The translations under genes were made by a program, and so were the position numbers. This document shows positions 31,990-35,742 of a stretch of 64,000 nt of DNA, piece by piece (positions within the stretch are counted from its first letter, which is position 1; every line of letters begins with the position of its first letter). The DNA is taken from the NCBI RefSeq assembly GCF_016903815.1, contig NZ_CP069973.1. One strand, 5' to 3'. The notes below the pieces were generated by a model. The model saw only the letters and a list, made by a program, of their open reading frames with translations. It was not told the DNA's origin and did not search any database. The DNA is from Escherichia coli. Lineage in GTDB: Bacteria; Pseudomonadota; Gammaproteobacteria; Enterobacterales; Enterobacteriaceae.

Positions 31990-32028
31990 CAAACAAAAGA
32001 AAAAGGCCAGCCTCGCTTGAGACTGGCC
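31990..32028 (-). terminator. rpoS rho-independent terminator
   Basis: ggccag...ctggcc stem followed on minus strand by TTTTTCTTTTGTTT. Confidence 0.6.
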
Positions 32029-32046
32029 TTTCTGACAGATGCTTAC

Positions 32047-33039
32047 TTACTCGCGGAACAGCGCTTCGATATTCAGCCCCTGCGTTTGCAGGATTTCGCG
32101 CAAACGGCGCAGGCCTTCAACCTGAATCTGGCGAACACGTTCACGGGTGAGGCCAATTTCACGACCTACATCTTCCAGTGTTGCCGCTTCGTACCCCAGC
32201 AAACCGAATCGACGTGCCAGTACTTCACGCTGTTTGGCGTTCAGCTCGAACAGCCATTTGACGATGCTCTGCTTCATATCGTCATCTTGCGTGGTATCTT
32301 CCGGACCGTTCTCTTTTTCATCGGCCAGGATGTCCAGCAACGCTTTTTCGGAATCACCACCCAGCGGGGTGTCTACCGAGGTAATGCGCTCGTTAAGACG
32401 AAGCATACGGCTGACGTCATCAACTGGCTTATCCAGTTGCTCTGCGATCTCTTCCGCACTTGGTTCGTGGTCCAGTTTATGGGACAACTCGCGTGCGGTT
32501 CGCAGGTAAACGTTCAGCTCCTTTACGATGTGAATCGGCAAACGAATAGTACGGGTTTGGTTCATAATCGCCCGTTCGATCGTCTGGCGAATCCACCAGG
32601 TTGCGTATGTTGAGAAGCGGAAACCACGTTCCGGGTCAAACTTCTCTACCGCGCGGATCAGCCCCAGGTTGCCCTCTTCGATCAGGTCCAGCAACGCCAG
32701 ACCACGATTGCCATAACGGCGGGCAATTTTTACCACCAGACGCAAGTTACTCTCGATCATCCGGCGGCGGGAGGCAACATCTCCACGCAGTGCGCGACGC
32801 GCAAAATAAACTTCTTCTTCGGCCGTTAACAGTGGTGAATAACCAATCTCACCAAGGTAAAGCTGAGTCGCGTCCAACACACGCTGTGTGGCTCCCTGCG
32901 ATAACAGTTCCTCTTCGGCCAAATCGTTATCACTGGGTTCCTCTTCTACTAAGGCCTTTTCGTCAAAAACCTCAACTCCGTTCTCATCAAATTCCGCATC
33001 TTCATTTAAATCATGAACTTTCAGCGTATTCTGACTCAT
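32047..33039 (-). CDS. rpoS: RNA polymerase sigma-S (sigma-38)
   Basis: 330 aa from [14 protein letters not shown]; sigma-70 family regions 2-4; full-length with no internal stop. Confidence 0.95.
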
Positions 33040-33101
33040 AAGGTGGCTCCTACCCGTGATCCCTTGACGGAACATTCAAGCAAAAGCCTGGTTCCGCCGA
33101 T

Positions 33102-34241
33102 TTATCGCTGCGGCAAATAACGCAGCGGGTTTACGGATTTCCCCTTGTAACGAATTTCAAAATGCAAGCGTGTTGAACTGGTTCCGGTGCTACCCATGGT
33201 TGCTATTTTTTGCCCCGCCTTCACTTCTTGTTGTTCCCGGACCAGCATTGTGTCGTTATGGGCGTAGGCACTCAGGTAATCATCATTATGTTTGATGATA
33301 ATCAGATTACCGTAGCCGCGCAGCGCGTTACCGGCATAAACAACGCGGCCATCTGCGGTCGCGATAATTGCCTGTCCTTTGCTGCCTGCGATATCAATCC
33401 CCTTGTTGCCCCCCTCAGAAGCGCCAAAGGTTTCGATCACTTTGCCCTCAGTCGGCCAGCGCCAGGTGGAGATAGGCGTACTGGTTGATGTACTGCTGAC
33501 AGTCGGCTCGGTTGTGCTTGCTGTTGGCACCGTTACAGGCGCTGTGACCGTGGTCGCAGTTGGCTTGTTGTTCGGCAACATTTTGTTAGCACTCTGTTCA
33601 CCCGAAGACTCAGAATACGTAATTGTCGGTTGCGACGCAACAGCAACGGTGGAATTTTGTGCAGGCTTGATCACAACTCCTTGCTCTGCTGCGTCGGCCT
33701 GGGTAATGGCATTTCCGCCAGTGATTGGCGTACCGGAAGCATTACCCACCTGCAAGGTCTGACCAACGTTCAGCGCGTATGGTGCCTGAATATTGTTGCG
33801 CTGAGCAAGGTCACGGAAATCGTTGCCAGTAATCCAGGCGATATAGAAAAGTGTGTCGCCTTTTTTCACGGTATAGGTACTGCCGCTATAACTGCCTTTC
33901 GGAATGTTCCCATACTGACGGTTATAGACGATGCGTCCGTTTTCCATCTGTACCGGCTGCTGAGCTACTGGCTGCACCGGCTGGATTTGCGGTTGTTGAG
34001 TGGCCTGAATTTGTGGCTGCTGTACCGGCTGAATTTGCGGTTGCTGAGCTGTAGACGTCGTTCCCATTTTCGGCGGCGGCGTAATCAACATACCAGAATT
34101 GGTATTTGCAGGCGCATTGCCATTAACGGAGCTGACCGGTGCCGGTGGATTTGAAGTGTCAGAACAGCCTGCCAGCCATAGCGAAACCAGTGACAAAGCC
34201 GCAATGCGGCGAACGGTGAATTTTGGGCTTCCCGCGCTCAT
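33102..34241 (-). CDS. nlpD: Murein hydrolase activator NlpD (LysM + M23 peptidase lipoprotein)
   Basis: 379 aa; lipobox LAGCS, Gln/Pro-rich repeats, LysM ([13 protein letters not shown]), C-terminal M23 domain. Confidence 0.9.
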
Positions 34242-34380
34242 TTATCCCCCAGGAAAAATTGGTTAATAACCAGTGACATAATTACCGTGCAAGGCACCAT
34301 ACTGAACACTGGAAAAGATGTTCACGATACGCTGACCTGCGGCAAAATAACCAGGAAAAATCCAGGTATTTCCTCACGTT

Positions 34381-35742
<1,362 letters not shown>

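Follow-up and report, generated by a model that had tools for sequence, protein, structure and literature searches.

The DNA considered here is a window of 64,000 nucleotides from Escherichia coli (contig NZ_CP069973.1 of RefSeq assembly GCF_016903815.1) that carries nlpD on its minus strand, with pcm, surE and truD on one side of the gene and rpoS on the other. The gene order surE-pcm-nlpD-rpoS is found both among the open reading frames of the window and in the RefSeq annotation of the same region. The gene that carries the repeat array described below is nlpD: its reading frame scores 679 bits (cutoff 311, E=1.8e-204) with the NCBIfam equivalog NF008123 'murein hydrolase activator NlpD' over profile positions 1-365 of 365, and RefSeq annotates nlpD at the homologous place in thousands of genomes. 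NlpD activates AmiC and localises to the septum according to PMC5533458. At its N-terminus lies a lipoprotein signal peptide with a basic n-region, a hydrophobic core and the lipobox L-A-G-C. From established knowledge of lipoboxes, C26 is presumably lipidated; together with M1, S2, G4, S5 and T9 it is invariant in 27 Enterobacteriaceae. A linker separates this cysteine from a LysM domain, and the C-terminal part is an apparently degenerate LytM domain. Residues 252-376 match the solved LytM domains of DipM and EnvC and are the sole part of NlpD with relatives in the PDB. HxxxD and HxH are the motifs of active M23 enzymes; in NlpD, read by eye, NKGID stands in place of HxxxD and RLHF in place of HxH, so that the zinc ligands of active M23 peptidases may be missing. 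A second linker, between LysM and LytM (residues 225-256, 33474-33569, minus strand), is a low-complexity segment rich in T, S, P and V that has indels between genera: S. enterica diarizonae is without four residues and Pseudescherichia has an insertion. The features of the gene and of the array are as follows.

33102-34241, minus strand: nlpD coding sequence, 379 amino acids from the ATG at 34241, stop codon included (ORF list and NCBIfam)
34164-34241, minus strand: lipoprotein signal peptide with lipobox LAGC, residues 1-26, C26 being the presumed lipidated cysteine
34023-34046, minus strand: repeat unit 1, QQPQIQPV, residues 66-73
34033-34043, minus strand: 11-nt exact direct repeat CAACCGCAAAT, unit-1 copy
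34020-34031, minus strand: 12-nt exact direct repeat CAGCCGGTACAG, first copy, one end of the 72-bp deletion
33999-34022, minus strand: repeat unit 2, QQPQIQAT, residues 74-81, the most diverged at the DNA level
33975-33998, minus strand: repeat unit 3, QQPQIQPV, residues 82-89, 21/24 identical to unit 1
33985-33995, minus strand: 11-nt exact direct repeat CAACCGCAAAT, unit-3 copy
33948-33974, minus strand: degenerate tail QPVAQQPVQ, residues 90-98, where the 9-bp deletion and duplication alleles occur
33948-33959, minus strand: 12-nt exact direct repeat CAGCCGGTACAG, other copy, at a distance of 72 bp
33747-33875, minus strand: LysM domain, residues 123-165 (Pfam PF01476, E=2.7e-12), the first folded domain past the linker
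33126-33407, minus strand: apparently degenerate LytM/Peptidase_M23 domain, residues 279-372 (Pfam PF01551, E=4.6e-33)

Two matters of annotation concern the gene as a whole. RefSeq/PGAP starts nlpD at a TTG at codon 16, which gives a product of 364 residues (348 in deletion strains) and would drop codons 1-15 (34197-34241, minus strand), including K7, R11 and R12 of the n-region; the hexamer GGGGGA sits 4 nt upstream of the ATG at 34241. Because the n-region would be lost, GGGGGA precedes the ATG, and M1, S2, G4, S5 and T9 are invariant, the RefSeq start appears to be placed too far downstream. Two antisense open reading frames run across the array on the plus strand, at 33630-34154 and 33851-34054 (174 and 67 amino acids). 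They were judged spurious, as RefSeq has only nlpD here and their leucine-rich translations mirror the CAG/CAA-rich coding strand.

The original prediction placed tandem in-frame repeats in the NlpD linker, and such an array is present there as three 24-bp units (33975-34046, minus strand); the plus-strand string quoted for it, GGCTGAATTTGCGGTTGCTG, occurs at 34027-34046. Tandem Repeats Finder reports 33971-34047 with a period of 24, 3.2 copies, 71% matches and a score of 85. It keeps the reading frame and lies between the lipobox cysteine C26 and LysM, which starts at residue 123. The units were predicted to be near-identical, which overstates the DNA, where 15-21 of 24 positions match (17/24 between units 1 and 2, 21/24 between 1 and 3, and 15/24 between 2 and 3); the protein repeat is much cleaner, with the QQPQIQ core exact in all three. 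The octapeptide of units 1 and 3 is the same, and their DNA differs at three synonymous positions. Ichikawa et al. 1994 (J Bacteriol 176:1630, cited in PMC2736372) name this repeat in their title, and the feature described there concerns the same gene, segment and organism, with nothing different in kind. The NlpD repeat is real but ordinary and already known, and gene and repeat are textbook features of E. coli. This analysis contributes counts of length alleles across 5,426 complete genomes, the junctions of these alleles, and a 48-bp deletion that marks the EC4115/TW14359/SS17 group of O157:H7.

The census set consists of 5,426 complete E. coli genomes, 5,420 of which match a 301-bp probe around the array. 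In evenly sampled rows of these matches the span is unchanged, except in the weakest (Z142-6), which is 72 bp shorter. Megablast breaks at gaps of at least 24 bp and identity is not lowered, so identity bands of the 301-bp probe are not diagnostic. A 113-bp probe was used for which any loss of at least 24 bp leaves coverage below 80%. Coverage is this low in exactly 61 genomes, and 59 type-A and two type-B 48-bp deletions account for all of them, which leaves no room for 24-bp deletions. Junction probes covered every in-frame deletion or duplication with at least 5 nt of flanking microhomology on 11-12 natural SNP haplotypes; they were trimmed to have no 28-mer in common with any wild-type haplotype, such that only rearranged alleles seed. 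Among the complete E. coli genomes, no single-unit allele (plus or minus 24 bp) matches any modelled junction. Representative variant alleles were read directly. The length alleles found are listed below.

48-bp deletion, type A: 59 genomes; crossover in the 11-nt CAACCGCAAAT of units 1 and 3, one unit left
48-bp deletion, type B: 2 genomes (PEC145, PEC411); junction a few bases further 3'
72-bp deletion: 2 genomes (Z142-6, USMARC-49610); between the two 12-nt CAGCCGGTACAG copies
9-bp tail deletion: 7 genomes; QPVQPVA becomes QPVA
9-bp tail duplication: 4 genomes, on two SNP backgrounds; reciprocal of the 9-bp deletion
48-bp duplication: 1 genome, the baboon isolate PapRG-04-4; five units, crossover at the 11-nt CAACCGCAAAT copies

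In all, at least 75 genomes of about 5,420 (1.4%) have a length variant, about 98.6% of the 5,420 keep one arrangement, and E. coli alleles hold about 0.4, 1, 3 or 5 units. Compared across genomes, as the original prediction proposed, repeat number is not identical in all strains. Its expectation of copy-number variation is borne out by these in-frame variants, and its description of the repeats as slippage-prone goes too far, since variation is rare and largely clonal. With tandem units and copy-number polymorphism between strains, the array belongs among coding-region VNTRs; it is a poor typing marker of low diversity, except for the O157:H7 clade 8 group. For small indels the census is a lower bound: the 113-bp test with the K-12 haplotype places 21 genomes at 90-95% identity, of which 11 are 9-bp alleles, and at most about 10 more may hold small indels or many SNPs. 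Only two records have a second place, so large duplications concern about two genomes at most. Some probe matches were corrected. The CFSAN061771 haplotype (12 genomes) and WEM25 are false positives of the junction probes, with wild-type length and SNP combinations that had not been modelled, and Rb-50, which a probe match presented as a 36-bp deletion, actually carries a 9-bp duplication. Six of the 5,426 complete genomes have no match to the 301-bp nlpD segment, and one further genome matches the 301-bp but not the 113-bp probe, for which the 72-bp deletions do not account. These seven genomes may have nlpD deletions or disruptions.

All junctions read fall in exact direct repeats of 9-12 nt with partners 9-72 bp apart: 11 nt (48 bp apart), 12 nt (72 bp apart) and, in the tail, 9 nt (9 bp apart). 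The length steps seen are 48 bp, with units 1 and 3 pairing, 72 bp, and 9 bp in the tail; steps of 24 bp do not feature, presumably because unit 2 is too diverged from its neighbours. We infer slippage from these products, and near-neutrality of the variants only from the persistence of the alleles. Divergence of the units at synonymous sites would make replication misalignment infrequent. When misalignment does occur, it would pair the longest exact direct repeats available and yield deletions or duplications that keep the frame and change the length of the tether in either direction. The resulting length variants are apparently tolerated, and one of them has become fixed in a successful O157:H7 lineage. 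Classical examples of slippage include the lacI deletion hotspots and RecA-independent misalignment. As in deletions by slippage at short direct repeats, the array junctions lie in exact direct repeats; reciprocal products are also seen at the array, with a deletion and a duplication of both 48 bp and 9 bp. Unlike in the classical systems, the mechanism at the nlpD array is judged from its products alone.

At least four flanking haplotypes carry the 48-bp deletion, which shows two types of junction. The four haplotypes are represented by the following strains.

Flanking haplotype 1: EC4115
Flanking haplotype 2: ECCWS199 and P276M, sharing one haplotype, 15 SNPs from EC4115 over 2.6 kb
Flanking haplotype 3: ESBL 15, 30 SNPs away, with GCC at A65
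Flanking haplotype 4: Z1322HEC0006, with GCC and GTA

PEC145, with the second junction type, represents an additional origin. The occurrence of several haplotypes and junction types implies that the deletion arose, or was transferred, several times. Roughly half of its carriers are O157:H7 or putative O157 strains (the EC4115, TW14359, SS17, SS52 and RM6067W group). PMC4321836 and PMC8779985 assign the strains of this group to O157:H7 clade 8, lineage I/II. The full-length array was read directly in O157 strain 180-PT54 and is inferred from unchanged alignment spans in O157 strains Z1833, PV15-279 and DEC4E. The 16-residue deletion is common to all clade 8-type O157:H7 reference strains seen and provides a simple lineage marker; no link of nlpD to the O157:H7 clade 8/TW14359 lineage was found in the literature searched. 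The O157 allele of 180-PT54 also has N33H in the linker upstream of the array (codon 33, 34143-34145, minus strand), and NlpD of EC4115 has its own RefSeq protein accession, different from the one of the non-O157 deletion strains.

The distribution of the repeat beyond E. coli was scanned in 80 nlpD loci of Enterobacteriaceae, with one genome per species. The exact three-unit array is also present in E. whittamii and two further Escherichia species. E. whittamii, cryptic-clade Escherichia and E. albertii all retain the QQPQIQ core, and the last of these has four units (QQPQIQPI, QQPQIQPA, QQPQIQSA and QQPQIQPV). E. albertii NlpD in NBRC 107761 (locus 301-1458) has 386 residues and a one-residue deletion upstream, where APANTNSG becomes APGTNSG. 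In Citrobacter, Salmonella, Enterobacter, Kosakonia, Kluyvera and others, this position is occupied by two degenerate units with the layout (T)PQIQPVQ...QP(T)QIQPV...QPVQ. The pattern PQIQPVQ...QIQPV...QPVQ is conserved across Enterobacteriaceae, and the length and sequence of the segment drift between genera. PMC2736372 describes a P/Q-rich repeat in NlpD of E. coli and Salmonella that is absent in Yersinia.

Within E. coli, nine full-length alleles were compared, including those of the window, K-12, O157, ST131 and others. The polymorphic sites of the array are synonymous third positions at A65, V73, A80, P88 and V89, with a single amino-acid change, Q83R, in one strain. Because array variation falls at synonymous sites, it points to a constrained peptide and not to a conserved DNA or RNA motif. 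Judged from these alleles, the pattern would be a signature of selection on the peptide, with its QQPQIQ core, and not on the DNA.

Several other explanations have to be weighed. The periodicity could be a chance by-product of a low-complexity composition rich in Q and P, as Q or P occupies 23 of the 34 positions of residues 65-98, but the likelihood of this is next to nothing. The best 48-nt self-match at offset 24 in the array is 33/48, whereas codon shuffles of nlpD (n=2000) average 25.0 and peak at 32; none of the 2000 shuffles reaches the observed periodicity, and the chance reading is rejected. No second place with a self-match of 33/48 occurs in the 64-kb window at offsets of 6 to 60. 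The 8-residue spacing of the three exact QQPQIQ hexapeptides and the fourth copy, in register, in E. albertii also argue against chance. A tandem repeat in the gene of a surface-associated lipoprotein, with length variants that exist and recur, might also suggest a contingency locus or hypervariable VNTR at which frequent slippage switches or diversifies NlpD among close strains. This is extremely improbable. The 24-bp unit and all variants (9, 48 and 72 bp) are multiples of 3, so no frame is switched; the units are only 62-88% identical; nearly all genomes have one arrangement; the commonest variant is largely clonal; and no single-unit change is seen. The marks of phase-variable repeats, namely a frame shift by unit change and near-perfect units with high variability, are absent from the array. 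A role of the repeat in DNA or RNA to which coding would be secondary, such as a protein-binding array or an RNA element affecting rpoS transcription that reads through nlpD, is also very unlikely. The rpoS ATG (33039) is about 900 bp downstream of the array, rpoS belongs to the same operon as nlpD, and its transcription begins within nlpD, a subject on which Lange and Hengge-Aronis reportedly worked in 1994. However, variation between units and between strains sits at synonymous sites, the opposite of what this explanation predicts, and the array-deleted natural strains examined all have identical annotated RpoS (WP_000081550.1). The array region has no inverted repeats, positions 32000-35500 give no Rfam match at E<=1, and no promoter-like site was found in 33000-34500. 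Three terminator-like matches in 33000-34500 were set aside, as they are within the number expected by chance.

We consider it highly probable that the array is an in-frame imperfect repeat in an unstructured tether of NlpD, that it is changed by infrequent slippage, and that its variants are tolerated. NlpD activates the septal amidase AmiC, and the tether would run from the lipid anchor of the protein in the outer membrane (C26) to LysM, which binds peptidoglycan. In PMC5533458, disorder of the N-terminal linker is predicted with DISOPRED, and a fusion with this linker alone is weakly enriched at midcell. No solved PDB structure matches residues 27-121 at E<=1. An AlphaFold2 model from a 27-sequence Enterobacteriaceae alignment has a mean pLDDT of 33 and is poor throughout, even in M23; pLDDT is below 50 for residues 1-116 and most of M23, so that linker and fold are inseparable in it. 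The repeated peptide could have more than a spacing role, as a functional short linear motif (for example, a multivalent contact for Lol or for a partner in the envelope or at the division site) with a copy number that tunes NlpD. We regard this as unlikely. In its favour, array amino acids are essentially invariant in E. coli while synonymous sites vary, a PQIQPVQ-like motif lies at the same position across Enterobacteriaceae, the linker-only fusion has its weak midcell enrichment, and Lol-dependent sorting of outer-membrane lipoproteins involves their N-terminal linkers (bioRxiv 10.1101/2021.01.05.425367). Strict amino-acid conservation of the core could thus mean more than a passive spacer. 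Against a motif, alleles reduced to one unit or nearly none survive in nature, with a globally successful O157:H7 lineage among the carriers, Yersinia NlpD is reportedly without the whole region (PMC2736372), and length and sequence of the segment drift between genera. A motif is compatible with the spacer explanation and does not exclude it. That QQPQIQ/PQIQPV is a multivalent functional motif, and that the one-unit O157:H7 allele alters NlpD reach, sorting or cell separation, is decidedly improbable. If true, the one-unit allele would contribute to envelope or aggregation phenotypes of the EC4115/TW14359/SS17 lineage.

Proline-rich spacers that cross the periplasm include the (Glu-Pro)n/(Lys-Pro)n region of TonB and the linkers of LpoA and LpoB, for which length is thought to matter more than exact sequence. 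Like these spacers, the NlpD array is repetitive, proline-rich and presumably extended, in a membrane-anchored protein that reaches peptidoglycan or the opposite membrane. Unlike them, its motif is uncharged and rich in Q, P, I and V, the anchor is a lipid in the outer membrane, and the partner is AmiC at the septum. The likeness would be a functional analogy only, and not homology. With the predicted disordered linkers of RcsF, Pal and NlpD the array has its place in common, after the lipobox and the sorting residues. Length and disorder of outer-membrane lipoprotein linkers matter for Lol-dependent extraction (bioRxiv 10.1101/2021.01.05.425367). In that study, about 60% of NlpD without residues 29-64 stays in the inner membrane, an effect that depends on Lol and is rescued by deletion of lpp, and the truncated protein complements poorly; the tested deletion lies outside the repeat (66-98), which is intact in that construct.

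The length alleles provide a natural series of tethers, at roughly -24, -16, -3, +3 and +16 residues, that is usable for tests of Lol sorting and AmiC activation. The census also puts figures on the stability of the array, which, where it changes, gains or loses two units or triplets of the tail at short direct repeats. A small repeat just upstream of the array, CCGCCGCCG, encodes PPP (codons P55-P57, 34071-34079, minus strand) and varies too: strain A30 is minus one CCG (PPP becomes PP, allele read), and G47-1 matches the same 3-bp-deletion junction probe, by probe match only.
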